Notes: generated by a model not told the origin, from the sequence alone. 64,000 bases of DNA from Deltaproteobacteria bacterium (GCA_022340465.1 JAJDNW010000006.1:7530-71529), one strand, 5' to 3'. Shown: positions 36,309-53,229, counted from the first letter of the stretch. Translations and numbers: made by a program.

Positions 36309-36654
36309 GAGGCCCTACCAATGTAAAAAATGACTGGTGGCGATAATAAGCTCATACATTATCTTGTATGTGCTAACCCATAATTTGTTCAAAATTTGGA
36401 TCAGCATGTAAATATCTACCGACTCGTTTTATCGTCAATATGTTGGCCTCCCCTAAGTGAAAGATACCATTGACAAGATATGGTAATCAACACCTCCGAC
36501 CGGCACTATCCGACAGTTACGTGATCCATTAATTTGGGGTATAATGGTAGAGCCCATACCATAGGCCGAGAATAATGCTATCATTTTGACCAGGAACCGA
36601 TCAAAGTCAATGACAGATGCCCGATAGGGCTGGTGCATTGGATTGGGCATATGT

Positions 36655-37308
36655 TCAAGTTTGCATAGGTATGACGTAATACAGAACGGCGAAGAAATGA
36701 AGGATGCTGCCAGCTAATACAAATATGTGCCAGACCGCATGATTAAATTTGAGGTTCTTCCAACGATAGAAAATAATTCCGGAGGTATAGGCGAGCCCGC
36801 CCAATAGGAGCAAAATGAGTCCGCCTGTAGCCACAGATGAAATTAGCGGTTTAATTGCCACCAGGACTGTCCAGCCCATTCCAATATATAATACCAGAGA
36901 CACTACCCGCCATCTCTCCATTCGGCCTATCTGAATAGCTGTACCGATAAACGCAAGGCACCATACAACAGCAAAAAGCGACCATCCCCATGGACCACGA
37001 AGATTCACGAGCGTAAAGGGAGTGTATGTGCCAGCAATAAGCATGTAAATGGCAGAGTGATCGAGGATCTGGAAAATATTTTTAGTCCGGGGATCCTGAA
37101 TGCTGTGGTAAAGGGTTGAAGCCGTGTAAAGGAGAATCAATGTAAAACCGTACACACTGACGCTGATAACATGCCAGGGATTGCCATAGATGCCGGCAAA
37201 GGTAGCGAGGATGCCTAAGGCACCAACCGCGAGAACAATGCCTATGCCATGGGTTATGCTGTTAGCGACCTCTTCTTTGATGCTATATCTCTTGGTGGTC
37301 GATTCCAT
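36655..37308 (-). CDS. hemolysin III / PAQR family membrane protein
   Basis: 217 aa, 7 TM. EEVANSITHGIG, DHSAIY, HAVWHIFVL conserved His/Asp motifs. Confidence 0.85.
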   Translation of the reverse strand: MESTTKRYSIKEEVANSITHGIGIVLAVGALGILATFAGIYGNPWHVISVSVYGFTLILLYTASTLYHSIQDPRTKNIFQILDHSAIYMLIAGTYTPFTLVNLRGPWGWSLFAVVWCLAFIGTAIQIGRMERWRVVSLVLYIGMGWTVLVAIKPLISSVATGGLILLLLGGLAYTSGIIFYRWKNLKFNHAVWHIFVLAGSILHFFAVLYYVIPMQT

Positions 37309-37643
37309 ATGCTTTGATGCTAATTCTATTTACCGTTAAAAAGATAATCACAGAGGTAACTTTTAGCCTGGAATCGCATCAAAGTGTTAGATTATTGTTT
37401 CGGTTACAATTGTTTTACAATGTGAAAAACTTAATGCTCCCATTATAACGAGAAAATCGGTTTTTAGCCGCATACAATATGTTGTGTATGTAATATTTTA
37501 AGGGGGTTAGGCCACTAAATCATAAAGTCCAAACGCATTAGAATTCTCCTAATTTGGCGTAATCTACATAAATGAAAGCGATAATCCAATTATCATTAGC
37601 GTTTGTAGTCTTTTCTTTTAAATATCAATTTATATTTATTCGC

Positions 37644-37672
37644 TTGCAAAAGTTAAAATACTGGCTTATATT
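37644..37672 (+). promoter_or_regulatory. candidate sigma-70 promoter of the toxin-antitoxin pair
   Basis: TTGCAA-N17-TATATT, 38 nt upstream of the ATG at 37710, in AT-rich DNA where such matches occur by chance. Confidence 0.3.
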
Positions 37673-37709
37673 CTTACCAGTAAAAACGTAATAATATTGG
37701 AGTAGAATA

Positions 37710-37973
37710 ATGCCAAGAATTGGAACTACCAAAATGTCTTCAAAAGGGCAGGTCGTAATACCAGAAGATATCAGGAACCAATTGAAGCTCAAAACTGGCG
37801 ATCAATTTGTCGTTGTTGGAGATAAAGACACGGTGGTTTTAAAGGCCATCTCACCACCACCCGTGGACGAATTCGAGTATTTATTGAAATATGCTCGTCA
37901 GCAAGCAAGAAAAGTGGGGCTGAAACGCTCAGATATTAAAAAGGCTGTTGCTAAGGTTCGGGGAAAGAATTGA
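37710..37973 (+). CDS. AbrB/MazE/SpoVT-family antitoxin
   Basis: 87 aa. SSKGQVVIPEDIRNQLKLKTGDQFVV looped-hinge-helix motif. Stop overlaps the toxin start. Confidence 0.8.
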   Translation: MPRIGTTKMSSKGQVVIPEDIRNQLKLKTGDQFVVVGDKDTVVLKAISPPPVDEFEYLLKYARQQARKVGLKRSDIKKAVAKVRGKN

Positions 37974-38371
37974 GAATCGTTCTCGATACCAATGTTTTTA
38001 TATCTGGTGTATTCTTCAGTGGGCCTCCTTATGATATTCTAAAGGCCTGGATAGATGAACGAATTCAGATAGTAATATCATCTGAGATTTTACAAGAATA
38101 TCAGCGCGTCGGTGAAGAACTCCAGTACCGATATCCTGAAATTAAAATAATACCCATCCTCAAGTCTTTTTCAAAAAATGCGATATTGATTTCAGCCCCT
38201 AGTTTGCCTCACCAGGTTTGTGTGGACCCTGATGATGATAAATTTCTTGCATGTGCCGTTGCAGGTAATGCAGAATTGATTATCAGTGGAGACAGGCATT
38301 TATTAGATATAAATGATTTTCAGAGTATCAAAATTATCAAACCCCGAATGTTTCTAGACGAATACCTATAA
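37970..38371 (+). CDS. PIN-domain toxin (putative ribonuclease)
   Basis: 133 aa. RIVLDTNVFISG (first acidic residue), ...DPDDDKFLACA, ...LISGDRHLL (PIN acidic quartet pattern). Confidence 0.8.
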   Translation: MRIVLDTNVFISGVFFSGPPYDILKAWIDERIQIVISSEILQEYQRVGEELQYRYPEIKIIPILKSFSKNAILISAPSLPHQVCVDPDDDKFLACAVAGNAELIISGDRHLLDINDFQSIKIIKPRMFLDEYL

Positions 38372-38450
38372 TCCTCAAGAAAATATCAGGATATAGCCAC
38401 AATAGCACAGCAGCAAAACCACATGATCCTATCTCAGGGTGCAGGAGCAT

Positions 38451-38529
38451 CCATTCCTGAAAAACATCTAAATTCGAAAGTTACCCCACCACAACATGTA
38501 GTTTTTTCCCTATATATTTCAATAGTATA
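38451..38529. repeat. ~79-bp imperfect direct repeat, copy 1 (core AAATTCGAA..TTACCCCACCACAA)
   Basis: Ungapped hand alignment with 52951-53029: 61 of 79 positions identical, including a perfect 14-nt block TTACCCCACCACAA. Confidence 0.75.
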
Positions 38530-38858
38530 CGTTATAAACACGGCTCTTTCGCCCCGGGGTGGAAGGCTCTTTTCTCCTGGGCAAAAACTTTATGCGCTGT
38601 TTGTTTGGCGGACTAAAAACTCCTTCTGGATTCTTAGCGAAATTCCTCGCACTTTGGCACCTCGCTATCGCTTGGATTTTTGTTTTACCTATCTAACTAT
38701 ACTGAATAATGACCATAACAGACTATTAATAAGAGAAAAATGATACGTTCAGTTTGAAGGTGACCGGATAGGCAAAAAAATTATTCTTGACACATTTGCT
38801 CTCATAAAGTTAACTATATGAAACCCTATAAAACTATAAGAAACTCTGCGACTGAGCA

Positions 38859-39452
38859 ATGGAGCAACCCATGGATCCGTTCAGCGTCGCCAAGGCGATT
38901 AAAAATCTCAGGAAGGAAAAGGGCTATAGTCTCAACAGGCTGGCCTCACTGTCCGGCCTCTCGAAAGGATATCTATCCAAAATCGAAAACGGCATCAATG
39001 TCCCCACTATTACCACCATGGCCAGAATTGCCACCGCCCTGGAAGTGGAGGTGACCTTTTTTTTTATGCAGCAAGGGGCAAGCAGCCGGAACCGGAAGAT
39101 GGTGATTGTCCGCAGTGACGAAAGAAAGGAAATCAACATCAAGAGTCCGGAAAGCGTCGTTAGAAAACGGTGGCCGCTTGCAAGTCAGAAATATGACCGG
39201 CATATGCATCCATATATCATCGAAGTGCCGGTCGAGCCGACTAATCTGTATCAGTTCGAAGGCCAGGAGTTTTATTACATGCTCGATGGCAGTATTGAAA
39301 TGACCTATGACGGGGAAACGTTTGTTTTCGATGAGGGTGATTCCGTGTACATCGATTGCGACCTTCCATATTCCGGACGGAGTATGGGGCCGGGGCCTGC
39401 CAGGGTGCTTGTGGTAGTCTACCATATGGGGCCCAAAGAAAATAAGGCATAA
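38859..39452 (+). CDS. XRE-family HTH regulator with C-terminal cupin sensor domain
   Basis: 197 aa. IKNLRKEKGYSLNRLASLSGLSKGYLSKIENG HTH. C-terminal YYMLDGSIEMTYDGETFVFDEGDSVYI cupin strands. Confidence 0.8.
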   Translation: MEQPMDPFSVAKAIKNLRKEKGYSLNRLASLSGLSKGYLSKIENGINVPTITTMARIATALEVEVTFFFMQQGASSRNRKMVIVRSDERKEINIKSPESVVRKRWPLASQKYDRHMHPYIIEVPVEPTNLYQFEGQEFYYMLDGSIEMTYDGETFVFDEGDSVYIDCDLPYSGRSMGPGPARVLVVVYHMGPKENKA

Positions 39453-39537
39453 AGGGCATCATAAATCATATTTTTTAGTTAGTTCATGTAAAATTTAAAA
39501 TAAGATAGGGCAATAAACAACCAAAGGAGAAAAGCAG

Positions 39538-40995
39538 ATGATAAGATCAAGCAGCGGTGGGATAGACACTGTCCGGTTTTTAAAGGACAGTGACATGCAG
39601 AAGATTCATGAGCAGGCGCTATACCTGTTGGAGAATACCGGCATCGGCATCGAGCACCAGGTAGGCATGGAGATGCTCGAAAATACCGGCGCTGTTGTGG
39701 ATTACGACAAGAAAACAGCCCGCTTTTCAGCGTCGCTGGTGGAAAAGTGCCTGGCATCCGTACCCCGTAAAATCACCCTGGCCGGCAGAAATCCGGAGCG
39801 AGACCTGATCCTGGAACCAGGCGGCACCATTCGGACCCGCAATACCGGCGGGATGACCCAGATACACGACCTTGAAACCGGGGAAATCAGAGAATCCGTT
39901 CTTTCTGACACGGCCGACTTTGCCAGGCTCTTGGACGGACTGGACAACATCGATTTCATTGCGCCTCTATATGCGGCCGACGTGCCCCTTGAAATCCTGG
40001 AGCTCCAGGTGCTGGAAACCATGATGTGCAATACGGACAAGCATATCAACATCCGGGCTCTAGACAAAAGGACCTTTCCCTATCTTATCAAGATGGGCGA
40101 GATCGTGGCCGGCGGTAAGGAAGCTTTGAAAAAGCGACCGGTCATCAGCATTCTCGAAGCACCCATTTCCCCGCTGGTATTCCCCGATGTTTTTGTTGAT
40201 TCGCTCCTTTTAGGCGGGGAGGCCGGAATACCAATCGAAATCTGTTCTATGCCCAACGTGGGCGGAACCGGACCGATTACCCTGGCGGGATCGCTGCTGC
40301 TATCGACGGTCGAACACCTGGCGACCATTGTCATTTCACAGACGGGTTGTCCGGGGGCGCCCCTAGTCTGGGCATCGCGCTTCCCGGCCCTGGACATGAA
40401 GACCGGCAACACTGGCATGCTCACGGAGGGTGCCCTGGTGTCGGCGGCGGCCGCCCAGTTGGCATCGGAACACTACAACCTAATCTGCGACCTGCACGGC
40501 CCGGCCACCAATGCTGTCAACCCGGAAGGCGAGTCCGTCTTCGAAGAGTGCATCGGTGCGTTCGTGACGGGCTTTGCTGGGCGCCCGGCCGTTCTGTGCG
40601 GTGCAGGCGGGATGGAGCTGGGCATTGCCACCAGCTTCGAGCAGCTGGTCATCTCCAATGAGATTTATGCGGTGTTCCGCAGAGTACTGGAAGGATTTGT
40701 TGTCAATGACGATACGCTGGGCATGGATGCCATCGCTCAGGCGGGGATCGGTGGCAATTACCTGGGAGAACAGCACACCCTCGACCACCTGCGCAGCGAA
40801 CGGTTGAATTCCGACCTGCTGAAACCGAAAACAAGGGCCAAGTGGCTCGAAGAGGGCTCTAAAAGCCTGGTTGACCTGGCCCGTGAAAAAGCACGCGCCA
40901 TCCTGGCGGAGCACAAACCGGCGCGCCTGGACGACGCCACCCTGGCAAGCCTCAAAGCACTTGTCAAGAAGGCACAAAATGAATTCACCGGCTAA
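39538..40995 (+). CDS. MttB-superfamily (trimethylamine methyltransferase-like) protein, non-pyrrolysine
   Basis: 485 aa, uninterrupted (no in-frame TAG). LSDxxxxKIHEQAL.LLE.TG., [23 protein letters not shown] blocks are typical of PF06253-type proteins as I remember them. Confidence 0.8.
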   Translation: MIRSSSGGIDTVRFLKDSDMQKIHEQALYLLENTGIGIEHQVGMEMLENTGAVVDYDKKTARFSASLVEKCLASVPRKITLAGRNPERDLILEPGGTIRTRNTGGMTQIHDLETGEIRESVLSDTADFARLLDGLDNIDFIAPLYAADVPLEILELQVLETMMCNTDKHINIRALDKRTFPYLIKMGEIVAGGKEALKKRPVISILEAPISPLVFPDVFVDSLLLGGEAGIPIEICSMPNVGGTGPITLAGSLLLSTVEHLATIVISQTGCPGAPLVWASRFPALDMKTGNTGMLTEGALVSAAAAQLASEHYNLICDLHGPATNAVNPEGESVFEECIGAFVTGFAGRPAVLCGAGGMELGIATSFEQLVISNEIYAVFRRVLEGFVVNDDTLGMDAIAQAGIGGNYLGEQHTLDHLRSERLNSDLLKPKTRAKWLEEGSKSLVDLAREKARAILAEHKPARLDDATLASLKALVKKAQNEFTG

Positions 40996-41065
40996 GCAAG
41001 AGACAGGTAAAACGCACTCTTTCCACAGATAGGAATTGGCGAAAATAGATAAAGGAGAGAACAAG

Positions 41066-42286
41066 ATGAAAGCGATCGTACTTGGCGGTTGCGGGGCCGT
41101 CGGCAGCAATGCCGTTAAAACCCTGGTGAAGACGGAGACCTTTGCGGAGGTGGTTATCGGAGATTTCAACGAGGGAAAAGCCTCAGAAATGGTCGCCCAG
41201 TTAGGCGGTAAACTGTCCTTCGTCAAAATGGATGCCACCGACAGGGCCAGCATCGCAACGGCTATCGATGGTTGTGACTTGGTTGTGAATTGTGTCGGCC
41301 CATTTTACAGCACCGTTGAAAATATTCTTGCGACGGTTATCGAAGCGGGCATCGATTATGTGGATGTGTGTGATGATCCCGATGTGACGCTCAAGATTCT
41401 GGAACTAGACAGGAAGGCCAAGGACGCAGGTATTCTGGCCTTGATCGGCATGGGGGCGTCTCCCGGCATCACCAACCTTTTGGGCAAACTGATCGCCGAA
41501 GATTTCCTGGACGAAACCAATTCTATCGACATTTTTCACACCCACGGCGGAGAGTCCATCGAAGGGGAAGGCGTCATCGGGCACCGTTTCCACTGCATGA
41601 GCATCGACATTCCCATGTATCTGGACGGGGAGCTGAAATACGTAAAGTATTTCGAAAAGGACGGCATGGCCCTGCGGCAGCTGTTCGACTTTCCGGTGAT
41701 CGGCAAAAATATACCGGTGTTTCCCTATCCCCACCCGGAGCAATTGACCATGCCGGAGTATATCAAGCTCAAACAGGTTACCAACAAAGGATCCGTCCTG
41801 CCCATTCCTTATTACGAGCTGACCTCGGAATTATGTCGCATGGGTTTTGCGGACGATGAACCGCTGATGGTCAAGGGGCATACGGTGAAACCTTACGACT
41901 TTGCCGTTGCCTATATCATTCGGGAACGCAAGCGCATTCTCGAAGAGACGGGGTTCGGTTCCCAGCGGGGCGCCATGAGCGTGGTCGTCAAGGGAAGCAA
42001 AGGTGACAAACCACAGGAATACAGAGTGCATATAGTTTCGTCGGATAAGGCGCTGGGCGAGGGCACCGGCATTCCGGCCGCCGTGGGGGCCATCCTGCTG
42101 GGTCAGGGGAAATTGTCCGGCAAGGGTGTTCTACCGCCGGAGGCCTGTGTCGATCCCAAGGAATTCATCGAGGTGGTCAAGCCACTGATGGACATGACCG
42201 AGCAGGCCGACGGCAAAGTAGCCGACAGCAGCATCATTTTCGAGCATGTGGATGAGACGGGCAACGTTACAGTACTCGATTTTTAG
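41066..42286 (+). CDS. saccharopine dehydrogenase-family NAD(P) oxidoreductase
   Basis: MKAIVLGGCGAVGSNAV Rossmann start, VVNCVGPFY, ~400-aa two-domain size. ATG at 41066 after AAAGGAGAG. Confidence 0.75.
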   Translation: MKAIVLGGCGAVGSNAVKTLVKTETFAEVVIGDFNEGKASEMVAQLGGKLSFVKMDATDRASIATAIDGCDLVVNCVGPFYSTVENILATVIEAGIDYVDVCDDPDVTLKILELDRKAKDAGILALIGMGASPGITNLLGKLIAEDFLDETNSIDIFHTHGGESIEGEGVIGHRFHCMSIDIPMYLDGELKYVKYFEKDGMALRQLFDFPVIGKNIPVFPYPHPEQLTMPEYIKLKQVTNKGSVLPIPYYELTSELCRMGFADDEPLMVKGHTVKPYDFAVAYIIRERKRILEETGFGSQRGAMSVVVKGSKGDKPQEYRVHIVSSDKALGEGTGIPAAVGAILLGQGKLSGKGVLPPEACVDPKEFIEVVKPLMDMTEQADGKVADSSIIFEHVDETGNVTVLDF

Positions 42287-42346
42287 TGGGGGATATAAAA
42301 GTAGATTGCCAGGGGTCAGAAATCCGGCACAGTAGAGAGTAAGGGA

Positions 42347-44044
42347 GTGTACCAAGTGGGCAAACAAGATGACTTTTACCCGGACTGGACGACCAGGGCC
42401 CCTGAAAAAGGCACCTACCGGTCCATATTCAAATGGGGTGCTCCTGATCGCTTCAAACACCCCAATGCAGGTTTTTACAGTCTTTTAAAAGACGAACTCG
42501 GGTTGACGGATGCCGACTTTCAAGAGAAGCGCAACCAGGGAAATGGCCGGGTGCAATGCGACATCCCCATAAGCCTGAACACGGATCAGGTTCAACACTT
42601 CAAACAGATTGTCGGCGAAGACAACGTTGCCATGGACGACTACTCCAGGGTGAAATACTCACATGGTAAAACCGCCGAGGAGATCATGAAACTGCGGCGG
42701 GAGATCGTCGGCGATTTGGCCGACCTGGTGGTGCAACCCAGGAACAAGAGGGATGTCCGGGATATCATCTCTTATTGCCATGCTCAGAAAATAGCACTGT
42801 ATGCCCGGGGGGGCGGCTCCTCGGTCACCATGGGGTTCAAGTGCACCCGGGGCGGCATCTGCCTGGATTTGAGCAGGTACATGAACAAGGTTTTGGAACT
42901 GAACGAGACCAACCACACGGCCACGGTCGAATCGGGCATCCTTGGCCCCCAATACGAACACGCGCTCAATCATGCGCCGGCCCAAATGAGGGCCAAAAGG
43001 CGCTATACCTGCGGGCATTTCCCCCAGTCCTTCGAGTATTCCTCCGTCGGGGGCTGGATTGCCGCCCTGGGTTCCGGACAGCAGTCCACTTATTACGGCG
43101 ACATGTATGACCTTGTCGTCAGCCAGGAATATGTCACCCCGGTGGGTGAATTCAAAACTCTGGATTTCCCGGCCACAGCCACCGGCCCCAAGGTGAACGA
43201 CATCATGAAGGGCAGCGAGGGGGCTTTCGGGGTTCTGGTGAGCGCGACACTGAAAATATTCAGGTACATGCCGGAAAACCGGCAGCGTTTCGCCTTTGTG
43301 TTTCCCGATTGGCAAGCGGCCGTTGACGGCACAAGGGAAGTCTGCCAGGGGGAATTTGGGATGCCCTCGGTGTTCAGGATTTCCGACCCGGAAGAGACGG
43401 AGATCGCCCTGCGTTTGTACGGGATCGAGGGCACGGTCATAGACAAGGGCATCGTGCTACGCGGATACAAACCGGGCAAACGGTGCATCCTGGTGGGTCA
43501 GGCCGAAGGGGCCCTTTCCTATGCGAAAAATGTAAAAAAGAACATCAAGAAGGTGTGCCGGGCCCACAAGGCCATGTACATCGGCGGTTACCCCATGAAA
43601 AACTGGGAACACGGCAGGTATGCCGATCCTTACATGCGCGAGGATCTGGACGACTACGGCGTTATGGTCGACACACTTGAGTCGAGTGTCGCTTGGGACA
43701 ATCTCCACCGCCTGTATGAGGGTGTCAGGGAGTATATTAAATCCAGGGAGCATACGGTTTGCATGACCCATGCCTCCCATTTCTATCCCCAGGGGACGAA
43801 CCTATATTTTATCTTCATTTCTCGCATGGAAGACATAGAGGATTACCGGCAGTTCCAAAGCGGCATTATCGAACGCATAGCGGCATACGGCGGATCCCTG
43901 AGCCACCATCACGGTGTGGGCAAGATGATCGGTCCCTGGATGACAAAACACCTGGGGGATCAGCAGATGAATGTTCTGAGGGCTGTTAAAAACCATTTCG
44001 ACCCTCACGGCATCATGAATCCGGGGGGCACCTTGGGGCTATGA
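42347..44044 (+). CDS. FAD-linked oxidase (FAD_binding_4 plus FAD-oxidase_C), alkyl-DHAP-synthase-like
   Basis: 565 aa. Long N-terminal extension with KWGAPDRFKHP, then VVQPRNKRDVRDII...ALYARGGGSSV, C-terminal HHHGVGK and DPHGIMNPG. GTG at 42347 or 42356. Confidence 0.75.
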   Translation: MYQVGKQDDFYPDWTTRAPEKGTYRSIFKWGAPDRFKHPNAGFYSLLKDELGLTDADFQEKRNQGNGRVQCDIPISLNTDQVQHFKQIVGEDNVAMDDYSRVKYSHGKTAEEIMKLRREIVGDLADLVVQPRNKRDVRDIISYCHAQKIALYARGGGSSVTMGFKCTRGGICLDLSRYMNKVLELNETNHTATVESGILGPQYEHALNHAPAQMRAKRRYTCGHFPQSFEYSSVGGWIAALGSGQQSTYYGDMYDLVVSQEYVTPVGEFKTLDFPATATGPKVNDIMKGSEGAFGVLVSATLKIFRYMPENRQRFAFVFPDWQAAVDGTREVCQGEFGMPSVFRISDPEETEIALRLYGIEGTVIDKGIVLRGYKPGKRCILVGQAEGALSYAKNVKKNIKKVCRAHKAMYIGGYPMKNWEHGRYADPYMREDLDDYGVMVDTLESSVAWDNLHRLYEGVREYIKSREHTVCMTHASHFYPQGTNLYFIFISRMEDIEDYRQFQSGIIERIAAYGGSLSHHHGVGKMIGPWMTKHLGDQQMNVLRAVKNHFDPHGIMNPGGTLGL

Positions 44045-44070
44045 AAATTCAAGGTTTCGAGGGAACAACA

Positions 44071-44116
44071 CATAGCCGATAGTGTATAGTTCATCGTCTA
44101 CTATCAGCTATGAACT
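44071..44116. promoter_or_regulatory. overlapping inverted repeats in the leader of the first FGGY kinase gene
   Basis: CATAGCCGATAGT (44071-83) pairs with ACTATCAGCTATG (44100-12), 12 of 13. AGTTCAT (44088-94) pairs with ATGAACT (44110-16). The two pairings are mutually exclusive. Ends 34 nt before the ATG at 44150. Confidence 0.4.
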
Positions 44117-44149
44117 TTCTGCTGATCACTCTTGCGAAAAGGAGGGTAC

Positions 44150-45745
44150 ATGAACAGTAAGGTTCAGGAAAAGTACATTCTCGCAGTCGATCACGGGTCT
44201 ACGGGCTTGAAAACGTCCCTTTTCTCGACTTCCGGAAAGAGTATCGATTTCGAATTCGAGCCGACGCCCATCACCATACTGCCGGAAGGCGGGGCTGAAC
44301 AGGATCCCGAAGAGTGGTGGCAGGCAACCATCAAAACGTGCCGCCGGCTGGTGGAAAAAAAGAGCGTACCGGCTGAGGACATCGTGGCCATCGGTGTGTC
44401 CAGCACTTTTTCCAGCACCGTCGCAGTGGGCAGGAACAGGAAGCCGTTGATGAATGCGCTGACCTGGGCGGACAGCCGCGGTGCGAAGTATGTTCGGAAG
44501 ATCATGGGTGGGGCCATTGAAATCGGAGGGTACAGCCTGACAAATCTCCTAACCTGGATTCCCAAGACCGCCGGTGCACCGGCCCTGTCTGGAAAAGACG
44601 ACATCGCCCATGTGCTCTACATTAAAAATGCCCACCCGGAAATCTATGCGAACACGCACATGTTTCTGGGCAGCAAGGACTACCTCAACCTGAGATTGTC
44701 AGGTGAATTTGCCTCTTCCCCGGACTCCATGACCCTGTTTTGGGTGGTGAACATCAAGGACATTGACAACCTGGATTACGATGACCGGTTGATCCGCAAG
44801 CTTGATATCGACCTTGGCAAACTGCCCCCCCTGAAGCAGGCGACCGACATATTAGGGAACGTCCGGCCGGAGGTAGCCGATGAAATTGGCATCAAGCGGG
44901 ATGTGAAGGTCGTGGTCGGTTCTCCGGACCTGCAGTCGGCCGGTGTCGGGGCGGGCACGGTGGAGGATTACCAGGGACACATATATATCGGTACCGGGTC
45001 CTGGATCCATTGCGTGGTGCCCTACAAAAAAGCCGATGTTTTCCATCAGATTGCCACTTTTCCGCACGCCGTTCCAGGTAAATACTACACCGCCAATGCA
45101 CAGGACATTGCCGGCGGAAACCTGGCATTTTTGAAATCAAACCTGATTTATTATCAGAACGAATTGAACATTCAACGGCCCTCCGATTATCCAGACAACA
45201 TCTACGACACCTTCAACAAGATTGTCGAAGGTGTCGAGCCGGGTGCCGGGAAACTGATCTACACCCCCTGGCTGCACGGGGAAAGAACGCCGGTGGACAT
45301 CAATTCCCTGCGCGGCGGTTTTCACAACATGTCCATTTCCGCCACAATGAGTCACATGATCCGAGCCGTGTACGAGGGCGTGGCATTTAATACCAGGTGG
45401 ATGCTTTACTATGTGGAGAAATTTATTAAAAGAAAAATGGAATCTTTGTTGCTGGTCGGGGGAGGCGGTAATTCAGATGTCTGGTGCCAGATTTTCGCCG
45501 ATGTGCTAGACAGAGAAATCAGGCAGATTGAGGATCCGATTCAGTGCAATGGCCGGGGGGCTGCGTTTTTAGCTGCCATCGCCCTGGGTTATCAAACGGT
45601 TGCGGATCTTCCCCGACTGGTGAAGTGTACCGCCACCTACAGCCCCAATTCCGATAACCGAAAAATCTATGATGAATTGTATGACGCATTTCTGACCATA
45701 TATAAAAACAATAAAAAATTGTATAAACGGTTGAACCGTCAATAG
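44150..45745 (+). CDS. FGGY-family carbohydrate kinase
   Basis: YILAVDHGSTGLKT N-terminal ATPase motif, GSPDLQSAGVGAG, LLVGGGGNSDVWCQIFADVL C-terminal motif. ATG at 44150 after AAAGGAGGG. Confidence 0.85.
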   Translation: MNSKVQEKYILAVDHGSTGLKTSLFSTSGKSIDFEFEPTPITILPEGGAEQDPEEWWQATIKTCRRLVEKKSVPAEDIVAIGVSSTFSSTVAVGRNRKPLMNALTWADSRGAKYVRKIMGGAIEIGGYSLTNLLTWIPKTAGAPALSGKDDIAHVLYIKNAHPEIYANTHMFLGSKDYLNLRLSGEFASSPDSMTLFWVVNIKDIDNLDYDDRLIRKLDIDLGKLPPLKQATDILGNVRPEVADEIGIKRDVKVVVGSPDLQSAGVGAGTVEDYQGHIYIGTGSWIHCVVPYKKADVFHQIATFPHAVPGKYYTANAQDIAGGNLAFLKSNLIYYQNELNIQRPSDYPDNIYDTFNKIVEGVEPGAGKLIYTPWLHGERTPVDINSLRGGFHNMSISATMSHMIRAVYEGVAFNTRWMLYYVEKFIKRKMESLLLVGGGGNSDVWCQIFADVLDREIRQIEDPIQCNGRGAAFLAAIALGYQTVADLPRLVKCTATYSPNSDNRKIYDELYDAFLTIYKNNKKLYKRLNRQ

Positions 45746-45760
45746 GGAAAGGGGAGACGT

Positions 45761-47041
45761 ATGAATACGAAACTTGAAGACGAAACCCGGGGGCATGAAT
45801 CGAAATCATCAGGCTATAAATGGATAGTTTTTGGGGTCATGTTTGCCATCATGGGGATCGTCCTCGGAGCCAACTGGATGGTCATGCCGGTACTGTTCAC
45901 GCAGATGTCCGAAACCACCGGCATTGCCTTGTCGGCATTTCAGACCATCTGGGCACTGATTCCGCTCGCCGGTATTCTTATATGCCTGCCCGCCGGCCTG
46001 TTGGCCGACAAATTGGGTGTCTACTGGGTAATCGGTACATCTTTGATACTCTGTACCGTGTTTGGCTCCCTGCGAGGGGCGTTTTCCTCTTATGCCGGTA
46101 TTGCCGCCGCCACTTTTCTATGGGGGGGATCATCTTATGTATTCATGGTCAACTACCCTAAAGTCATCGGTCAATGGTTTCCGCCGAACCAACTGGCGGC
46201 GATCAACGGACTGGTCATGGCTGCCTATTCCATCGGGGCCGCTGTGGGCATGTCCATATCCGGCACGATGATTTCTACAGCCGTGGGCGGCTGGCAGAAC
46301 ACCTATCACTTCTGGGCGGCCCTGACGGGATTGTGTACGATTCTCTGGTTTGTGCTGGTCAAAGAAAAGCGGGATGCCGCTTCGGATATGGGGAAAAGTC
46401 AGGAAGCCATAGCAGCCGAAGCCAGTATCGGATCCTTGAGCATGGTCGGCAATATTCTGAAAATCAGGGATTCATGGTATCTGATCGCTATTTTTTCTCT
46501 GTTGATGGGTGGCTGGATAGGCCTCACGGGCTTATTCCCCAGCATGATGGAGCAATTGGGGTGGCCCCGGGCGGATGCCAACAATTCCATGGCGGTAGCG
46601 ACAGTGGCCATGATTGTCGGCTGTGCGATTTTGCCCACGCTGTCGGACTGGATCGGCAAGCGACGATGGATTTTTTCAGTTTCCATGATGTTATGCGGAT
46701 TGGCGACCGTGATGATGTTTCTCGCTGTTAAAACACCTGGCAATTCCATGTTGTGGGTATCTCTGACGGTTTTGGGTTTCATGGCCGGTGCCATGCCCAT
46801 CATTCTGGCGATACCCGTTGAATTGAAAGCCATCGGTATCGGCCTGGCTGGTACGGCGGTCGGGCTCATGAACATGGGCAGCAACATCACCGGATTCCTC
46901 TTTCCCCTGGCCGGGATGTCCATGTTAAACATCGAGCCCATCTGGTCGGGTCTATTGTTCGGTGGTGTTGGTTTTGTGCTGGCGGGCCTCCTGGCGCTGA
47001 TGCTTACGGAAACGGGAGCAAAAGCCAGGTCGAAACCCTGA
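45761..47041 (+). CDS. MFS transporter
   Basis: 426 aa, ~12 predicted TM segments. LADKLG loop 2-3 motif. Confidence 0.8.
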   Translation: MNTKLEDETRGHESKSSGYKWIVFGVMFAIMGIVLGANWMVMPVLFTQMSETTGIALSAFQTIWALIPLAGILICLPAGLLADKLGVYWVIGTSLILCTVFGSLRGAFSSYAGIAAATFLWGGSSYVFMVNYPKVIGQWFPPNQLAAINGLVMAAYSIGAAVGMSISGTMISTAVGGWQNTYHFWAALTGLCTILWFVLVKEKRDAASDMGKSQEAIAAEASIGSLSMVGNILKIRDSWYLIAIFSLLMGGWIGLTGLFPSMMEQLGWPRADANNSMAVATVAMIVGCAILPTLSDWIGKRRWIFSVSMMLCGLATVMMFLAVKTPGNSMLWVSLTVLGFMAGAMPIILAIPVELKAIGIGLAGTAVGLMNMGSNITGFLFPLAGMSMLNIEPIWSGLLFGGVGFVLAGLLALMLTETGAKARSKP

Positions 47042-47058
47042 CCCGAAAGGGAAGCTGA

Positions 47059-48519
47059 ATGTTAAAGACACGCAATGGCGGCATCAAAAGTGTTCGGTTT
47101 TTAACGAATGCGGACTTTTTGAAAATTCATGAACAATCCCTTTGCCTGCTGCAGGAAAAAGGGGTCGGGATTACACATGAATCTGCGCTAAAAAACCTGG
47201 CGGACTGCGGTGCAAATGTCAATTTTCAGACCAAGAACGTCACCATCAGTGCTGGCCTTGTTGAACAGGCTCTCAAGACAGTACCCCGTGAAATAACCAT
47301 GGCTGCAAGAAGTCAGGAGCGGGATATCGTCCTGGAACCCGGCGGAAAAATGTATACCAGGAATTCGGGGGGCATGACCCAGATCGTGGATATTGAATCC
47401 GGAGAGATAAGAGATGCGGTGCTTTCCGATACAGAAGATTTTACAAGGCTTGCAGATGCGTTAGAGCATATCAATGTGGTGGCCCCTCTATACCCTAGTG
47501 ATATGCCGCTGGAAATTTTAGAGCTGTATACGCTGAAAGCCATGTTCAAGCACACGGACAAGCATATAAGCGTGCGGGCACTGAATCCGGGGACCTTTCC
47601 TTTCATTGTAGAGATGGCCGGAGCTGTTGCCGGTGGTAGTGAGAAATTAAGAAAGCGGCCGATTATCAGTATACTGGACTCCCCCATATCCCCATTGTCT
47701 TTTCCCGATATTTTCGTAGACGCCTTGTACACAGGCGGTGAATACGGGATCCCGGTGGAAGCATGCTCCACACCGAATATCGGGGCCACCGGCCCCATAA
47801 CTCTGGCCGGCTCCCTGCTGCTGGCCAATGTCGAACAATTGGCCACCATCGTTATCTCACAGTTGGCCCACCCTGGTGCACCCCTTATATGGGCACCGAG
47901 GTTCCCCGCAATGGATATGTCCACCGGCATTACGGGCATGCTGACGGAGGGTGCCTTGATTTCAGCCGCGGCGGCACAAATGGCGGAGGAGTTCTATCGG
48001 CTGATCTGTGACTTTCATGGTCCGGCAACCAATGCCATCGTCGCTGGCTCGGAATCTGTTTTCCAGGAGTGCATCGCTGCATTCGTGACATCTTTTGCAG
48101 GCAGGCCGGCCTTATTGTGCGGGGCCGGGGCCTTGGAACTGGGGATCATTGCCAGTTTTGAAGATTTGGTTATCGCTGACGAACTTTTTGCTGTCTTGAA
48201 AAGGTCCATTGATGGCATCATCATCAATGAGGATACACTTGGGGCCGATGCAATAGCGGACGTCGGCATCGGGGGACATTATCTAGGCCACGAACACACG
48301 CTGAAACACCTCAGGGACAATCGTCTGAATTCATTCTTGTTGAAACCCAAAACCAGGGAACAGTGGGTTGAACAGGGCTCTCCATCGCTCGTCAAGAGGG
48401 CCGGTGATAAGGCGCGGGAGATATTGAAACATTACCAACCTGGAAAATTGGATGAGAGAACAGAAAAGGAACTTAACAACATCATCCATGCAGCCCACAA
48501 GGAATTATCCGATAATTAA
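47059..48519 (+). CDS. MttB-superfamily protein, non-pyrrolysine (paralog of 39538-40995)
   Basis: 486 aa, collinear with the first copy. Long shared blocks ([62 protein letters not shown]). Confidence 0.8.
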
Positions 48520-48532
48520 GCAGGGGGTTTCA

Positions 48533-50116
48533 ATGCCGTCGAAAAATGAATTTGATTATGATTATATAGTGATAGGTTCAGGCTTTGGGGGAAGTGTTTC
48601 TGCTTTGCGCCTGTCTGAAAAGGGGTACAAAGTGGCGGTCCTGGAAAAAGGGAAGCAATGGCAAAAAAAGATTTCCCCGAGACCAATTGGAATACGAAAA
48701 AATACATGTGGTTGCCTCAACTGGGTTGCTACGGTTACCAGATGCTGACGCAATTGAAGCACGTTCTCATATTTCATGGCGGGGGTGTGGGCGGTGGTAG
48801 TCTTGTTTATGCCAATCAACTGTTGATTCCACCGGATGAGGTCTTTGATCAGCCGGAATGGGGTCCGGGTGATTGGAAAGCCAACTTGATGCCGCATTAT
48901 AATGAAGCCAAAAGGATTTTGGGTGCCAATCCGAGTCCACAGATTGGTATTGCCGACAAATACCTTCGCGAAGTGGGCATAGAAATGCGCGGTGAGGATA
49001 CTTTTCATAAAAACGATGTCGGAATTTTTTTTTGGAACTCCGGATAAGACGGTTCCTGATCCCTATTTTGATGGTAGGGGACCAGATCGCACCGGCTGCA
49101 CATTTTGTGGGTCTTGCATGGTCGGCTGCCCAGTCGGTGCAAAAAATACGCTGGACAAAAACCATCTGCATCTGGCTGACGGATTAGGCGCTCGAATTAT
49201 CCCGGAAACTGAAGTGACTGGGGTTTTACCGCGCAACGGTGGATACGAGGTTTTGACCCGCAGATCAACGGGTGTCTTTCATCCTAAAAAAACTTATCGT
49301 GCCGGGGGGGTGATCTTCAGCGGGGGTGTTTTGGGATCGGTAAAACTTTTAATGAAATGCAAACAAAAAGGTTTGCTGCCGAAAATATCGGATCAATTGG
49401 GCAATTATGTACGCACCAACTCCGAAGCCCTTCTGGGTGTGAAATCAAAAGACAAGCATGTAGACTGGAATGATCAAATTGCCATTACCTCGGGCATTTA
49501 TGCGGATGAAACGACCCATATTGAAATGGTTCGTTATAACAAGGGTTCCGATGTTCTGCTGGATCTTTTTACCGTTATGACCGGTGGTGGCGGAAAAATC
49601 CCGTGTCCTATGCGGTTTTTAGGAAATATTTTCAGGCACCCCATACGTTTTGTAAAGCTATTGTGGCCACTGGGGAAAGCGGCAACAACCACGGTTGTCC
49701 TGGTAATGCAGACCGATAAAAACTACCTAAAGCTTGACTACAAACCGCGGTGGTGGCGACTTGGCGGCTACAGCATGAATAGTAAGGTTCCGGATGGCTT
49801 AAAGCGAGCACCCGTCTATATACCTGTTGCCAACGAGGTTGCCGAACGCTTGTCTCGCAAGATGAATGGCATACCACTGAGCCTTTTGCCCGAAGCCGCA
49901 TTCAATTCATCCACTACGGCGCATATCCTGGGCGGATGCTGTATGGCAGAATCGTCGGACAAAGGCGTAATTGGGTATAATGGAGAAGTGTTTAACTATC
50001 CAAATCTTTATGTTGTCGATGGTTCGGTGATACCAGCCAATTTGGGTGTAAATCCAAGCCTGACCATTACTGCGCTATCAGAGCATATTATGTCTCAGTT
50101 TCCTGAAAAAGAGTAA
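48533..50116 (+). pseudogene. GMC-family FAD oxidoreductase (cholesterol-oxidase-like), disrupted by two compensating homopolymer frameshifts
   Basis: Three consecutive ORFs: [15 protein letters not shown]...EKGKQW / KKDFPETNW...GGGVGGGSLVYAN...HKNDVGIFF / GTPDKTVPDPYF...CGSCMVGCP...HILGGC...VVDGSVIPANLGVNP. The frame changes at an A7 run (48663-69; A8 restores) and a T9 run (49025-33; T8 restores). Confidence 0.7.
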
Positions 50117-50183
50117 GGGGCATTTCACACATGTGCGTCTTTTAAATATTCCGAGCAAACAGTAAAGATTGGGTGATGGTTTT

Positions 50184-51758
50184 ATGAAAGAGAAATATGT
50201 GCTTGCCTTTGATCACGGCACCTCGGGCATGAAGTCTGCCATTGTTGACAGCACGGGGCAGGTGCTGGATTTTGAGTTCAAGGATACCCCCCTCTATTTT
50301 TCCCCCAATGGAGGAGCAGAACAAGACCCACAAGATTGGTGGGAAGCGCTTTTACTGACTGCCAAAAAATTGGTGAAACGCAAATCAGTACCCCCTGATC
50401 AAATTGTGGCCATCGGTATTTCCAGTACATTTTCAAGTACCGTGTCAGTGGACAAAGATGGTAAGCATTTGATGAATTCCCTTACCTGGATGGATTCCAG
50501 GGGCGCACCCTTTATCCAGAAACATATTGCCGGATTTCCGGAAGTGAACGGACTGAATGTGTTTAAGGCTTTGAAGTGGATATCAAAAACTGCGGGAGCA
50601 CCTTCTCCTTCCGGTAAGGATGACATAGCCCATGTCCTGCTGACCAAACACGAATTTCCCGAAGTGTATGAAAAAACCTTCATGTTTTTGCCGAGTAAAG
50701 ACTATTTAAATCTACGGTTGACCGGTCAGTTTGCGGCATCATACGATTCCATGCATCTCTTTTGGGTGACCAACATAAAAAATATCAACAAGATGTATTA
50801 TGATGACCGTCTGTTGAAACTGGCAGGCATCGAAAAGGATAAACTTCCCTCCATGAAACAGGCTACCGATATTCTCGGGACCGTTTCTGCAGCGGTGGCA
50901 GATGAGATCGGCATCAGCCGGGATGTAAAGGTGGTTATGGGATCACCGGACCACCAGTGCGCCTGTATCGGGTCTGGAGCTGTGAGGGACTTTGAAGGGC
51001 ATTTATATATAGGGACATCTTCCTGGCTAGAGTGTATGGTTCCCTTTAAGAAGACCGATATTCTGCACTCTATTGCCTCCTTCCCTACGGCTATTCCGGG
51101 AAAATACCAGTGTGTCAATGAGCAGGACCTGGCTGGCGGCTGTTTAACTTTTCTTATGGATAACATTCTGTTTTATGATAGTCCTCAAATTCCTACGGTC
51201 GTTCCCGACGCCGCTTATGATGCCTTGAACAAGGTAGCTGAGCAAGTTCCGCCGGGCAGCGATAAACTGATTTTTACACCCTGGTTAAACGGTGAACGGA
51301 CGCCGGTGGACGATACGCTGTTAAGGGGTGGTTTTCATAACATGTCCAAAACAACGAATCGTAATCATATGATTCGGGCTGTCTTGGAAGGTGTTGCCTA
51401 TAATACACGCTGGATGCTTCACTATATAGAAAAATACATCGGCCGTCCCCTGAATCCCATTAGCATTATCGGCGGGGGGGCAAAATCGAGGATATGGTGT
51501 CAGATTTTCGCCGATGTTTTGCAGCGGGATATTCGACAAGTGAAAAATCCCATCCACGCGAATGCACGCGGAGCCGCCTTTATCGCAATGGCCGGGCTAG
51601 GTGAACTTACGTTTGAGGATGTCGCCAATCGGGTGCAATACGACGCCACGTTTACTCCCAATCCAGGCAATATCGAAATGTATAATGAATTGTATAAAGC
51701 CTTCATCAAGATTTACACCACGAACAAAAAGATTTACCAAAAACTGAACTGTCAATGA
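50184..51758 (+). CDS. FGGY-family carbohydrate kinase (paralog of 44150-45745)
   Basis: YVLAFDHGTSGMKS, GSPDHQCACIGSGA, IIGGGAKSRIWCQIFADVL. Collinear with the first copy. Confidence 0.85.
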   Translation: MKEKYVLAFDHGTSGMKSAIVDSTGQVLDFEFKDTPLYFSPNGGAEQDPQDWWEALLLTAKKLVKRKSVPPDQIVAIGISSTFSSTVSVDKDGKHLMNSLTWMDSRGAPFIQKHIAGFPEVNGLNVFKALKWISKTAGAPSPSGKDDIAHVLLTKHEFPEVYEKTFMFLPSKDYLNLRLTGQFAASYDSMHLFWVTNIKNINKMYYDDRLLKLAGIEKDKLPSMKQATDILGTVSAAVADEIGISRDVKVVMGSPDHQCACIGSGAVRDFEGHLYIGTSSWLECMVPFKKTDILHSIASFPTAIPGKYQCVNEQDLAGGCLTFLMDNILFYDSPQIPTVVPDAAYDALNKVAEQVPPGSDKLIFTPWLNGERTPVDDTLLRGGFHNMSKTTNRNHMIRAVLEGVAYNTRWMLHYIEKYIGRPLNPISIIGGGAKSRIWCQIFADVLQRDIRQVKNPIHANARGAAFIAMAGLGELTFEDVANRVQYDATFTPNPGNIEMYNELYKAFIKIYTTNKKIYQKLNCQ

Positions 51759-52178
51759 CATTCAGTTCATGCAATAAAAGGGCGCGGTGATTAAATTACC
51801 CACTTGGCGTTTTTAAATCTTCAAGCTGAATTAAATTCCTTTTATCTAAAGTGCTCAGGATGAATGATGGTATATTCTGGTAGGTGATATCCCGTCAAAA
51901 AAGATGGAGATAGATGTCGTAGTAATTTGACATTTGGTTGGGTCTTCATTTGAAAATTCACAAGATAGCCCGACCTGCATGACAGCAACAAGCCGGGCCA
52001 TAAGAAAGGAGGTATAAAGGAGGTGCACATGATATGGGCCCAAATTCCCATACCAATACAACATATAGTATGAATAGATAAAAATGTCAATAAAAATAAA
52101 AAATGAAACACACAATTAAGGACGGGAGTGTAGGGGAGAGCTTACAATATCTCTTCTGCCGATAGTATATAAACCTAT

Positions 52179-52367
52179 TCAGGCATAACAACCGATAAAC
52201 TCGCCGCAGTGATCGTTGAAAAACTCCAAAGCTTCATCAACAGAGTCAAACATGATCCAGTCGTGCTTAATAACTCTTTCACCCTGCATACGGATGCGTT
52301 CAATCTCCGTGTTCCCAAAATATTCAAAATGGTCTTGGTAATCTGTGTATATTTCCTGTGTTCTCAT
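52179..52367 (-). CDS. hypothetical small acidic protein
   Basis: 62 aa. Strong SD (AAAGGAGGGTAAAA) before the ATG at 52367. No recognisable family. Confidence 0.45.
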   Translation of the reverse strand: MRTQEIYTDYQDHFEYFGNTEIERIRMQGERVIKHDWIMFDSVDEALEFFNDHCGEFIGCYA

Positions 52368-52497
52368 TTTTACCCTCCTTTTGCTGAATGATTGAGCTCA
52401 GATTACCATATGGGTTTGACAGATCCGGTCACAGTGTTGTAAATTTATTGATATTTTTACAGAGAACAAGCAGGCAAAATCATAAAAAGGGTTTCCT

Positions 52498-52773
52498 ATG
52501 AACAAACTCGAAGTTATTCAGACCATTTGTGCTCAGAATGGCCTCTCCAAAGCCGAAGCGACAAGAATCGTATCTGTCTTTTTCGAGCAGATGTCAGCTG
52601 CATTGGAAAGAGGGGACCGCGTGGAGATCCGTGGTCTATGTTCTTTTTACGTTAAGGATTATCCGGGTTATTCTGGTAGAAACCCTAAGACGGGAGTAAC
52701 CGTGGAGGTCGCGCCGAAAAAACTGCCATTTTTCAAGTGTGGAAAAGAACTGAAAGATCGGATGAATAAATGA
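52498..52773 (+). CDS. IHF/HU-family DNA-bending protein (IHF-beta-like)
   Basis: 91 aa. RVEIRGLCSF...GRNPKTGVTVEVAPKKLPFFKCGKELKDRMN, the beta-arm signature of IHF/HU. Confidence 0.85.
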   Translation: MNKLEVIQTICAQNGLSKAEATRIVSVFFEQMSAALERGDRVEIRGLCSFYVKDYPGYSGRNPKTGVTVEVAPKKLPFFKCGKELKDRMNK

Positions 52774-52937
52774 TGGTCGATAAAATTGCAGGAATTGTAT
52801 TTGGCATGCTGGCCGTTGGCATTTATGCCTGGAAATTCAAGGAAACCCCTTTATGCCGGCCATGAATCATGATGCCTTTGGGATTAGGCGTCGGGTACGC
52901 TGTTTATTGGCTGGTTAAGAAGGTGGCGATAGGGTAG
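52773..52937 (+). CDS. candidate two-TM micro-protein with in-frame TGA (possible C-x-x-U selenopeptide), or a 30-aa peptide ending at 52865
   Basis: ATG overlaps the IHF stop (TGATG). MVDKIAGIVFGMLAVGIYAWKFKETPLCRP-TGA-IMMPLGLGVGYAVYWLVKKVAIG-TAG in a single frame. Hairpin TGATGCCT-TTGGGATT-AGGCGTCG at 52870-52893. Confidence 0.25.
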
Positions 52938-52950
52938 GGCGAAGAAGCCC

Positions 52951-53029
52951 CCATTCGTCAGAAACACTCAAATTCGAATATTACCCCACCACAATATCTA
53001 GTGGCTTCTCTATAAATATCAATAGGCTA
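52951..53029. repeat. ~79-bp imperfect direct repeat, copy 2
   Basis: See copy 1 (38451-38529). Same orientation, exactly 14,500 bp downstream. Confidence 0.75.
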
Positions 53030-53229
53030 TCTTCAATCATATAATCAACTTCTATTAGGTCTCCAAAAAATTATAAAAATCTTTAGGTCTGACAACTTAC
53101 GATCGGTTGCCATTTGCGTTTGTAATCTTTCTCACAGTAAAAAACTTTTCCGGAACAGGCTATGGATATGGCGATGAGAAAGTGGCAATGCGTTAAGTGG
53201 CGAATCTTACAGGAGGTCTCCGAGGCAAG

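Follow-up and report, generated by a model that had tools for sequence, protein, structure and literature searches.

The described systems that come closest to the one considered here appear to be the cassette arrays of integrons and the dif modules of Acinetobacter. Integron cassettes also occur in clusters that lack an integrase (clusters of attC sites lacking integron-integrases, CALINs), and the cassette repeats of Vibrio cholerae measure 123-126 bp. The attC site of integrons is recognised as a folded imperfect hairpin with R''/L''-L'/R' boxes and a GTTRRRY crossover box (PMC2727003, PMC3053210). In the dif modules of Acinetobacter, which depend on XerC/XerD, small modules that often encode toxin-antitoxin pairs are bounded by pdif sites and shuffled among contexts; each pdif site is 28 bp long (11-6-11), shows dyad symmetry and alternates in orientation around each module (PMC6449649, PMC7399989). 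In this work we analysed a stretch of 64,000 nucleotides from a Deltaproteobacteria bacterium (GCA_022340465.1 JAJDNW010000006.1:7530-71529), which is referred to below as the window and from the first nucleotide of which positions are counted. Its source is an uncultured member of the Desulfobacterales. It contains two imperfect direct repeats, which the original prediction had placed at 38451-38529 and 52951-53029 on either side of an island of MttB and FGGY genes. We show here that the two are paralogues, each a copy of a junction element of about 120 bp that is conserved and non-coding and that we named E.

The comparisons presented below show that E marks where small gene modules end on their downstream side, in a genome region that varies between strains of uncultured relatives of sulfate reducers (Desulfobacterales), and that positions 36534-53145 of the window form a recombinase-less and partly decayed array of such modules. 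From left to right, this array consists of a spacer remnant, a HlyIII gene, a degenerate E, an AbrB-PIN module, copy 1 of E, the MttB/FGGY island, an IHF-like gene with very short open reading frames (micro-ORFs), copy 2 of E and the remnant of an extension. The explanation that we favour, although at somewhat less than an even chance, is that E is a cassette-boundary recombination site at which modules are exchanged and which also carries a positionally conserved, leftward-pointing promoter-like signal. Relatives encode a Xer-like recombinase, and a recombination role of E next to this enzyme, as a boundary site of small modules, is plausible.

The gapless alignment of 38451-38529 with 52951-53029 confirmed the 61 identities out of 79 positions that had been counted by hand. 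A repeat finder gave a longer match (38436-38525 against 52936-53025, 77% identity over 90 nt, 14500 nt from start to start), and with a profile derived from relatives the copies extend over 38426-38545 and 52926-53049, beyond the limits first reported. The spacing of 14,500 bp was measured as described, but no meaning attaches to its exactness, because the corresponding distance in a sister strain (ENA k141_2863283) is 14,503 bp and the round figure is thus accidental. The AT-rich setting of both copies was borne out by a GC content of 0.42-0.45, compared with 0.55-0.58 nearby. Even when up to three mismatches are allowed, the 64 kb contain the 25-nt core AAATTCGAANNTTACCCCACCACAA exactly twice, and it did not appear once in 100 dinucleotide-preserving shuffles. 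No Rfam family was matched at either copy, at the gathering threshold or at E values of up to 10, and ARAGORN reported neither a tRNA nor a tmRNA in the window.

Fifteen distinct versions of this low-copy family were recovered from contigs of related uncultured Desulfobacterales metagenomes, each of them placed just downstream of a small self-contained gene module and all in one orientation. The strict core had no match in species-representative genomes (one per species, 185,579 species) and was found at only five loci in a metagenome collection of 241 million records. These five loci come from the same species and from one relative that is 81-88% identical, and they are of two kinds only, in which E follows either AbrB-PIN or the IHF-like gene with its micro-ORFs. 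The strict core was absent from viral contigs, and searches for E in plasmids and phages returned chance-level matches only. The suggestion that the repeats belong to a family of intergenic repeats therefore holds, for a family that is low-copy, lineage-restricted and not of the repetitive extragenic palindromic (REP) type. Further contigs were fetched through homologues of the PIN protein, and L012 is a genome with a 91% identical IHF-like protein. Across this collection, E follows AbrB-PIN in the window, L009, L092, L098 and L094/L096; the IHF-like gene (with two micro-ORFs) in the window, L011 and L012; a gene pair encoding 140 and 52 amino acids (aa) in L092, L105 and L106; a MaoC gene and also a reversed 231/177-aa pair in L108; and a reversed pair of ATPase and reverse transcriptase genes in L092. 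Four of the neighbourhoods in which E lies downstream of AbrB-PIN are additional and mutually unrelated (L092, L098, L094-97 and L096), and the AbrB-PIN module itself occurs in at least seven unrelated neighbourhoods.

The two copies in the window belong to separate lineages. Versions of E located after PIN carry an A-type middle segment (ATGTGGGCTnTTTCATTAAATTCCA) and versions located after the IHF-like gene carry a B-type middle segment (ATCTAGATATTCTCTTAATATTTCA); the left, core and middle segments of both types track the left-hand genes, whereas the extension types do not. Five other contexts contain an orthologue of copy 1, each time behind AbrB-PIN, and three other genomes contain one of copy 2 behind the IHF-like gene. 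None of these orthologous contexts, which come from more distant relatives, has the MttB island; it is present in the contigs L001, L002, L004 and L005 of the same species. In a relative, unrelated DHDPS, FGGY, cyclase and alcohol dehydrogenase genes lie to the right of E after PIN, and genes for ClpB, DnaJ, MerR and others lie to the left of the IHF-like block; none of these is found in the window. Homology between the window and its relatives ends at 38533, 53044 and 53046, that is 0-10 nt past the CAATCATA block, and begins again at 52178, at the left boundary of the IHF-like block. The IHF-like module, although located inside the bracket, is therefore not island DNA, and the repeats do not bracket the MttB/FGGY island as had been proposed, since the island proper (38546-52177) stops at the left edge of this module and not at copy 2. 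As each copy has orthologues in island-less contexts, the duplication is older than these genomes. Copies 1 and 2 are thus old paralogues that were inherited together with their left-hand genes and not the reciprocal products of a recent integration.

The anatomy of E was read on the plus strand from an alignment of 11 versions. In the 5' to 3' direction, a variable, short and hairpin-capable stretch is followed by ATTCnTnAnAAAC, by the strongly conserved sequence AAATTCGAAAgTTaCCCCAC-CACAAyATnTrG, by 17-18 poorly conserved nucleotides, by TTtCAATAG and lastly by CTACnTTCAATCATA, which is the best conserved block. Beyond the approximately 120 bp of E there is usually a conserved extension of 60-190 bp. 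In 13 of the 15 versions the motif aaTTTGatGTAATCTnnAT is found 35-45 nt further on, often followed by CATTAGCGTTTGTAATCT, and together these two motifs form the region upstream of every AbrB gene. Copy 1 and the element in L094 are cut off immediately after E and have no extension. The core is under constraint, because copy 1 and its orthologue in L009 are identical at 48 of 48 core positions as against 88% over the whole block; between paralogues, whose flanks are unalignable, 23 of 25 core positions are identical.

A number of other identities for E were considered and rejected. A minus-strand mini-ORF (M/I-LWWGN(F/I)RI) with tandem tryptophans, resembling a leader peptide, is present in the first four versions and is destroyed in L098 by a 9-nt insertion as well as in L094 and L012, and one-base indels together with non-synonymous substitution patterns argue against plus-strand coding or a read-through of the second micro-ORF into E. 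The resemblance to the 3' fragment of a tRNA or tmRNA (TTCGAA ... CCACCA) found no ARAGORN match, and the bases flanking TTCGAA are not complementary and form no T-stem. A structured RNA or an attC-like hairpin was discarded for lack of a consensus structure and of a significant fold, and a chromosomal dif site for lack of a conserved 11-6-11 dyad and of a clear switch in GC skew at this locus. Internal direct half-sites (AAATTCGAAAGT-TACC against AAATTCCAATAGTCTACC) were seen by eye only; in five versions the repeat finder recovered none of them, no inverted repeats within E and no consistent internal repeats. An invertible segment around the IHF-like gene, suggested by an inverted repeat at 52446-52463 and 53007-53024, was dropped as the left arm is not conserved in L012. 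The collinear short matches that suggested one more degenerate copy left of the IHF-like module (about 52043-52105) are not significant, and we do not claim this copy.

The evidence that connects E with a recombinase comes from four contigs (L092, L105, L106 and L108), in which one to three modules are arranged head to tail in short arrays that start beside a divergently transcribed gene for a Xer-like tyrosine recombinase (268/278 aa; 77-91% identity). L106 and L108 were obtained as the contexts of two further homologues of this recombinase. All seven copies of E in these contigs (three in L092, one in L105, one in L106 and two in L108) lie on the strand opposite to the recombinase gene, regardless of the orientation of the intervening genes. 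In L105 (NCBI GCA_018678665.1), an HU gene and the recombinase gene on the opposite strand are followed by the 140-aa and 52-aa pair, a diverged E and AbrB-PIN. L092, which starts inside the recombinase gene, continues with a 142/44-aa pair, E, AbrB-PIN, a second E, a reversed DUF4143 ATPase gene with a reverse transcriptase gene, and a third, partial E. In L106 the HU and recombinase genes are followed by a remnant of the 52-aa gene, E and the extension, and in L108 by the MaoC gene, E, the reversed 231/177-aa pair and another E. The HU gene thus accompanies the recombinase gene in L105, L106 and L108. The first module past the conserved recombinase-proximal spacer varies, being the 140/52-aa pair, the 52-aa remnant or MaoC in these contigs and HlyIII in the window. 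Among NCBIfam models the recombinase matches an XerA-type model best (113 bits, below the cut-off of 220), it scores 47.7 bits against the integron-integrase model TIGR02249 (cut-off 265), and its closest solved structure is that of an XerC-like recombinase. Known plasmids encode no close relative, identities there being at most 29%.

In the window, the array begins with the spacer remnant (36534..36625, plus strand), which was identified by BLAST and by alignment to L105, L092, L106 and L108 as a homologue of the DNA between the Xer-like recombinase gene and the first downstream module of relatives; its motif TTGGGGTATAATGGTAGAGCCCATACCATAGGCC is unique within the window. The junction 36533/36534 is strain-variable and has three different left contexts: rightward of it the window, L007 and L001 are 99.9-100% identical, leftward the window and L007 are unrelated, and the contig L001 (41.9 kb) starts exactly at 36534. 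Between the spacer remnant and a degenerate third copy of the element, E', lies a module in reversed orientation with the HlyIII-family gene (36655..37308, minus strand; Pfam PF03006, E 2.8e-42). E' (37464..37531, plus strand) was found with nhmmer (9.9 bits, E 0.25, profile positions 57-123) and matches the second element of L108 with 80% identity over 60 nt (BLAST, E 7e-8); it lies directly upstream of the AbrB-PIN module, and a weak similarity possibly reaches leftward to about 37440. Alignments of the left flanks of six modules show that its extension runs into the AbrB promoter region (37532..37709, plus strand) with the motifs AATTTGGCGTAATCTACAT (37551-37569) and then CATTAGCGTTTGTAGTCTTTTC, which are kept upstream of every AbrB-PIN module. 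Pfam confirmed that the genes preceding copy 1 are a toxin-antitoxin pair, an AbrB/MazE-type antitoxin (37710-37973, plus strand) and a PIN_3 toxin (37970-38371, plus strand). Copy 1 (A-type, 38426..38545, plus strand) is truncated at its right end, where about 4-7 nt of the TTCAATCATA block and the extension are missing. The MttB/FGGY metabolic island follows as a large insert between two modules (38546..52177, plus strand), delimited by Pfam matches and by the homology breaks. The IHF-like module (52179..52937, plus strand; Pfam and NCBIfam), a block conserved in L011, L012, L013, L014 and L006, comprises a 62-aa ORF on the minus strand (52179-52367) and, on the plus strand, the IHF/HU-family gene (52498-52773; Pfam and NCBIfam), micro-ORF1 (31 aa, 52770-52865) and micro-ORF2 (22 aa, 52869-52937); the IHF-like gene and micro-ORF reported before copy 2 are thus present, the micro-ORFs being two in number. 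Copy 2 (B-type, 52926..53049, plus strand) is complete; like copy 1, it was delimited by repeat finder, alignment and profile. Comparison of right flanks revealed behind it an extension remnant (53050..53145, plus strand) that resembles the region upstream of AbrB (..AAAAATCTTTAGG.., GCCATTTGCGTTTGTAATCTTTCT and CAGTAAAAAAC), with no AbrB-PIN genes behind. Beyond this point a radical-SAM/SPASM gene and a sigma-54 activator gene lie on the other strand.

According to the model that we tentatively prefer, modules would be exchanged by a site-specific recombinase at a site that is E itself or lies within it, with a role like that of the attC site of integrons or the site of dif modules. The left-hand portion of E would move with the left-hand module and the extension with whatever is on the right. 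E would in addition carry a sigma-70-like promoter aimed back towards the recombinase end of the array, from which co-oriented modules would be transcribed in antisense and reversed modules in sense. The MttB island would be cargo that landed between two modules and not DNA integrated by recombination between two E sites. A more far-reaching form of this model, which seems to us possible but doubtful, is that these arrays represent an undescribed integron-like gene-capture system, in which a small Xer-like recombinase shuffles modules via a double-stranded, non-palindromic site of 120-300 bp (E with its extension). The modules would be toxin-antitoxin pairs, the IHF-like gene, defence-type ATPase/reverse transcriptase pairs and metabolic genes, and the recombinase-less array of the window would have trapped the 13.6-kb quaternary-amine/sugar-kinase island.

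Several findings speak against a recombination site. No recombinase is encoded in the window, and the earlier statement that neither an integrase nor a transposase is visible there was upheld by tblastn with the related recombinase and six other mobile-element proteins and by a Pfam scan, which covered not every ORF. The link to a recombinase is provided by four contigs of one lineage. In all four of these recombinase genes, an A9 run (T9 on the listed strand; L105 2290-2360, L092 180-250, L106 ~9940-10000, L108 ~2580-2640) leaves the first ~20 codons shifted by one base relative to the rest of the reading frame, so that the recombinase could be inactive; the frame break falls on a slippery-type sequence (A AAA AAA), homologues with 60% identity are intact proteins of 278 aa, and a shared defect, an internal start or programmed slippage may lie behind the break. 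In a complete Desulfobacteraceae genome (L107), a 64%-identical recombinase has toxin-antitoxin neighbours and no E nearby. The homology edges to the left of modules are spread over tens of bases instead of falling on one nucleotide, neither an excised circle nor an empty site nor a hybrid junction was present among the recovered loci, and the remnant copies of the element are statistically weak. Furthermore, RNAalifold on nine versions yielded no pairs on the plus strand and eight weak pairs on the minus strand (-0.76 kcal/mol), single-stranded DNA folds of four versions gave z-scores from -2.06 to +0.77 over both strands, and no dyad-symmetric core is conserved across versions. The sole dyad, CCACA-ATA-TGTGG, is found in some A-type versions and is lost in the B-type.

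Two observations concern the core itself. A JGI contig of 8.2 kb (Ga0316576_10004787; L005/L010) ends inside the core of copy 2, after ...CCACCACAAT / ...TTACCCCACCACAAT, which may indicate heterogeneity of the population at this point or may simply be the end of an assembly. Half-sites broken at the core centre were considered as crossover evidence, but the remnant in the window was found to reach further left in the comparison with the second element of L108; the one clear half-site left after that comparison is L092 5097-5154, to which one contig end can be added, and they are kept as a hint only.

The main rival of the recombination model, somewhat unlikely in our view yet to be taken seriously, is that E is purely regulatory and consists of a leftward sigma-70 promoter with a conserved initially transcribed or operator region (GTGGTGGGGTAAC-TTTCGAATTT...). 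Transcription from it would yield an antisense RNA against the 3' ends of co-oriented modules (PIN, micro-ORFs) and a sense RNA for reversed modules (HlyIII in the window, the reverse transcriptase/ATPase pair in L092 and the 231/177-aa pair in L108), and E would have spread merely by travelling with the modules. The arrangement of E is consistent with this idea, as two conserved blocks surround the low-information spacer of 17-18 nt, the -35 TTG and A2/T3 of the -10 hexamer are the best kept positions there, and the 25-45 nt downstream of the -10 are strongly conserved. It had been predicted that each copy carries an outward-pointing pair of hexamers on the reverse strand, and this pair does exist. 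For copy 2 a scan tool independently gave TTGATA-18-GATATT, but copy 1 stayed below the thresholds of this tool and only a separate scan gave TTGAAA-18-CATGTT with 8 of 12 matches. In 8 of the 11 aligned versions, the minus-strand TTGnAA and (C/G)ATRTT are kept in position and spacing; however, they match in only 7-9 of 12 positions, a level reached about twice per kb when the scan tool is run on shuffled sequence, and the hexamers are degenerate in L092_C, L105_C and L106_C. A repeated promoter or small-RNA cassette, another of the earlier suggestions, is possible; hexamer position and spacing are kept in most versions, but no minus-strand terminator-like site was found downstream, no conserved RNA structure and no Rfam family.

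At every reversed module, the right-hand E points into the genes in the sense direction, as a regulatory role would have it. In type I toxin-antitoxin systems, short hydrophobic peptides are controlled by convergent antisense RNAs, and the short hydrophobic peptides encoded by the micro-ORFs are of this kind. However, the IHF-like gene and the micro-ORFs are conserved without E in L006, L013 and L014, so the micro-ORFs do not depend on E. A purely regulatory role also leaves unexplained why E has a fixed orientation relative to the recombinase gene and why the DNA beyond it is variable. The two readings can both be true at once.

Passive DNA, a dispersed repeat and attachment scars of the island are all less likely than either the recombination site or the regulatory element. 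It seems unlikely that E and its extension are functionless paralogous DNA, namely the long upstream region of an ancestral AbrB-PIN operon that was duplicated in tandem, with the copies after other genes being leftovers of deleted AbrB-PIN modules. This would account for the 13 of 15 versions that run into an extension matching the AbrB upstream region, and for the AbrB-like upstream sequence without genes behind it after copy 2 and in L106 and L108. It sits poorly with a core that is kept far better than neutral sequence would be (48/48 positions as against 88% block-wide; 23/25 in the comparison of paralogues), and with copies of E after modules that have no AbrB remnant behind them (copy 1, L094); moreover, each of five independent AbrB-PIN contexts would require a lost tandem partner.

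We regard it as very improbable that E is a REP-like repeat or a miniature inverted-repeat transposable element (MITE) that inserts at many intergenic sites. Its short, non-coding and AT-rich nature, its presence more than once per genome and the one assembly that breaks inside it would suit such an element. On the other hand, the 64-kb window holds only two full copies and a degenerate one, E has no terminal inverted repeats and no palindrome, and no presence/absence pair with both flanks conserved was recovered. The strict core is missing from the 185,579 species genomes and from viral contigs, plasmids and phages; its confinement to five metagenome loci with two types of context, in the same species and one relative, argues that E is not a generic dispersed repeat. 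Least probable of all, and contradicted by the evidence, is the leading idea of the original prediction, that the copies are the attL and attR scars of a site-specific integration of a 14.5-kb MttB/FGGY island: they are direct repeats in the same orientation around a gene block with AT-rich edges and without counterpart in relatives, but they belong to separate A-type and B-type lineages tied to left-hand genes in island-less genomes, the IHF-like module inside the bracket is not island DNA, no integrase was found in the island or the window, and the recovered loci included neither hybrid arms nor an empty site at which one copy alone connects PIN with the radical-SAM gene.

Some further features of the locus were recorded. 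The island encodes an HTH-cupin regulator, two MttB proteins, a saccharopine dehydrogenase-like protein, an FAD oxidase, two FGGY kinases, an MFS protein and a split GMC oxidoreductase. Two pairs of paralogues within it, the MttB-family methyltransferases (39538-40995 and 47059-48519) and the FGGY kinases (44349-44472 and 50371-50494), suggest an internal duplication of a gene set. The GMC oxidoreductase gene (48658-50116) appears split into an ORF of 129 aa and one of 374 aa with partial N and C domains, is called as pieces of 129, 99 and 247-254 aa in sister contigs and is probably a pseudogene. The hydrophobic peptides encoded by the two micro-ORFs (MMVDKIAGIVFGMLAVGIYAWKFKETPLCRP and MMPLGLGVGYAVYWLVKKVAIG) are conserved in L006, L013 and L014 even at sites where the DNA has diverged, and are therefore probably real small membrane proteins. 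In L011, an inserted beta-ketoacyl-synthase-like gene (7858-9633) separates the 62-aa ORF from the IHF-like gene, and ~50 bp of the promoter region (window 52401-52449) are found on either side of it. The sigma-54 activator gene lies on opposite sides of the IHF-like module, and in opposite relative orientation, in L012 (55-2082) and in the window (54521-57670), and the module has thus been rearranged relative to it. In L108 (~2470-2540, 1890-1990), the MaoC dehydratase gene is preceded by what is left of the micro-ORF2 3' end and by the hairpin portion of a B-type element, and it is followed by the rest of that element, so that the MaoC ORF appears to lie inside an element. Elsewhere in the window (10373-10447, minus strand), a c-di-GMP-I-GGC riboswitch aptamer was matched over its full length (RF03167; 64.4 bits, gathering score 59).

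Should E be a recombination site, cassettes would be shuffled without IntI and without folded attC sites, in an environmentally important host group in which very few mobile-element mechanisms have been characterised, and E would provide a sequence tag for strain-variable gene modules in metagenomes. If it acts only as a promoter or through antisense transcription, it would be a conserved regulator common to a PIN toxin-antitoxin pair and an IHF-like/micro-ORF locus. In either case, the view of the MttB/FGGY island as a bounded integrative element is corrected.

E shows partial similarities to several known systems. As a long (120-300 bp), AT-rich, asymmetric and non-coding site beside a tyrosine recombinase gene, with IHF or HU genes adjacent (the IHF-like gene before copy 2, and HU by the recombinase in L105, L106 and L108), it resembles lambda-type att sites. 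Unlike these, it does not form a single hybrid att pair, has no identical crossover core beyond the conserved blocks, does not match the IHF consensus at any conserved position, and is not accompanied by genes of phages or of integrative and conjugative elements. A promoter-like sequence just downstream of the hydrophobic micro-ORFs and the PIN toxin, pointing back at them, is reminiscent of type I antisense RNAs and of excludons; however, E has no terminator or structure, the micro-ORFs occur without it in relatives and it also faces genes in the sense direction. With the dif modules of Acinetobacter the arrays share discrete small modules, toxin-antitoxin pairs and a recombinase of the Xer family. 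They differ from these in that E is ~120 bp long, has no conserved 11-6-11 dyad and lies in direct orientation in all copies, and in that the setting is apparently chromosomal and in Desulfobacterales. The integron-like features are a ~120-bp repeat at the downstream end of each module in constant orientation, a start beside a divergent tyrosine recombinase gene with a conserved proximal spacer and a variable first module, toxin-antitoxin modules, some reversed modules and, in the window, a recombinase-less array comparable to the CALINs. In contrast to attC, E has no fold above background, no inverted repeats and no GTTRRRY/RYYYAAC boxes, copy 2 having no GTT at all and the GTTs of copy 1 being followed by ACC and ATA. 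The recombinase of the related arrays is a Xer-like protein of 278 aa, none being found in the window, as opposed to an IntI of ~320 aa with the IntI-specific insertion; and the arrays are short, with one to three modules, one 'module' of the window being a 13.6-kb metabolic island. By this comparison the E system would be closest in its working to an integron cassette array or a dif-module system, yet it lacks the features by which members of either are recognised, and it may best be described as a site-bounded module array.

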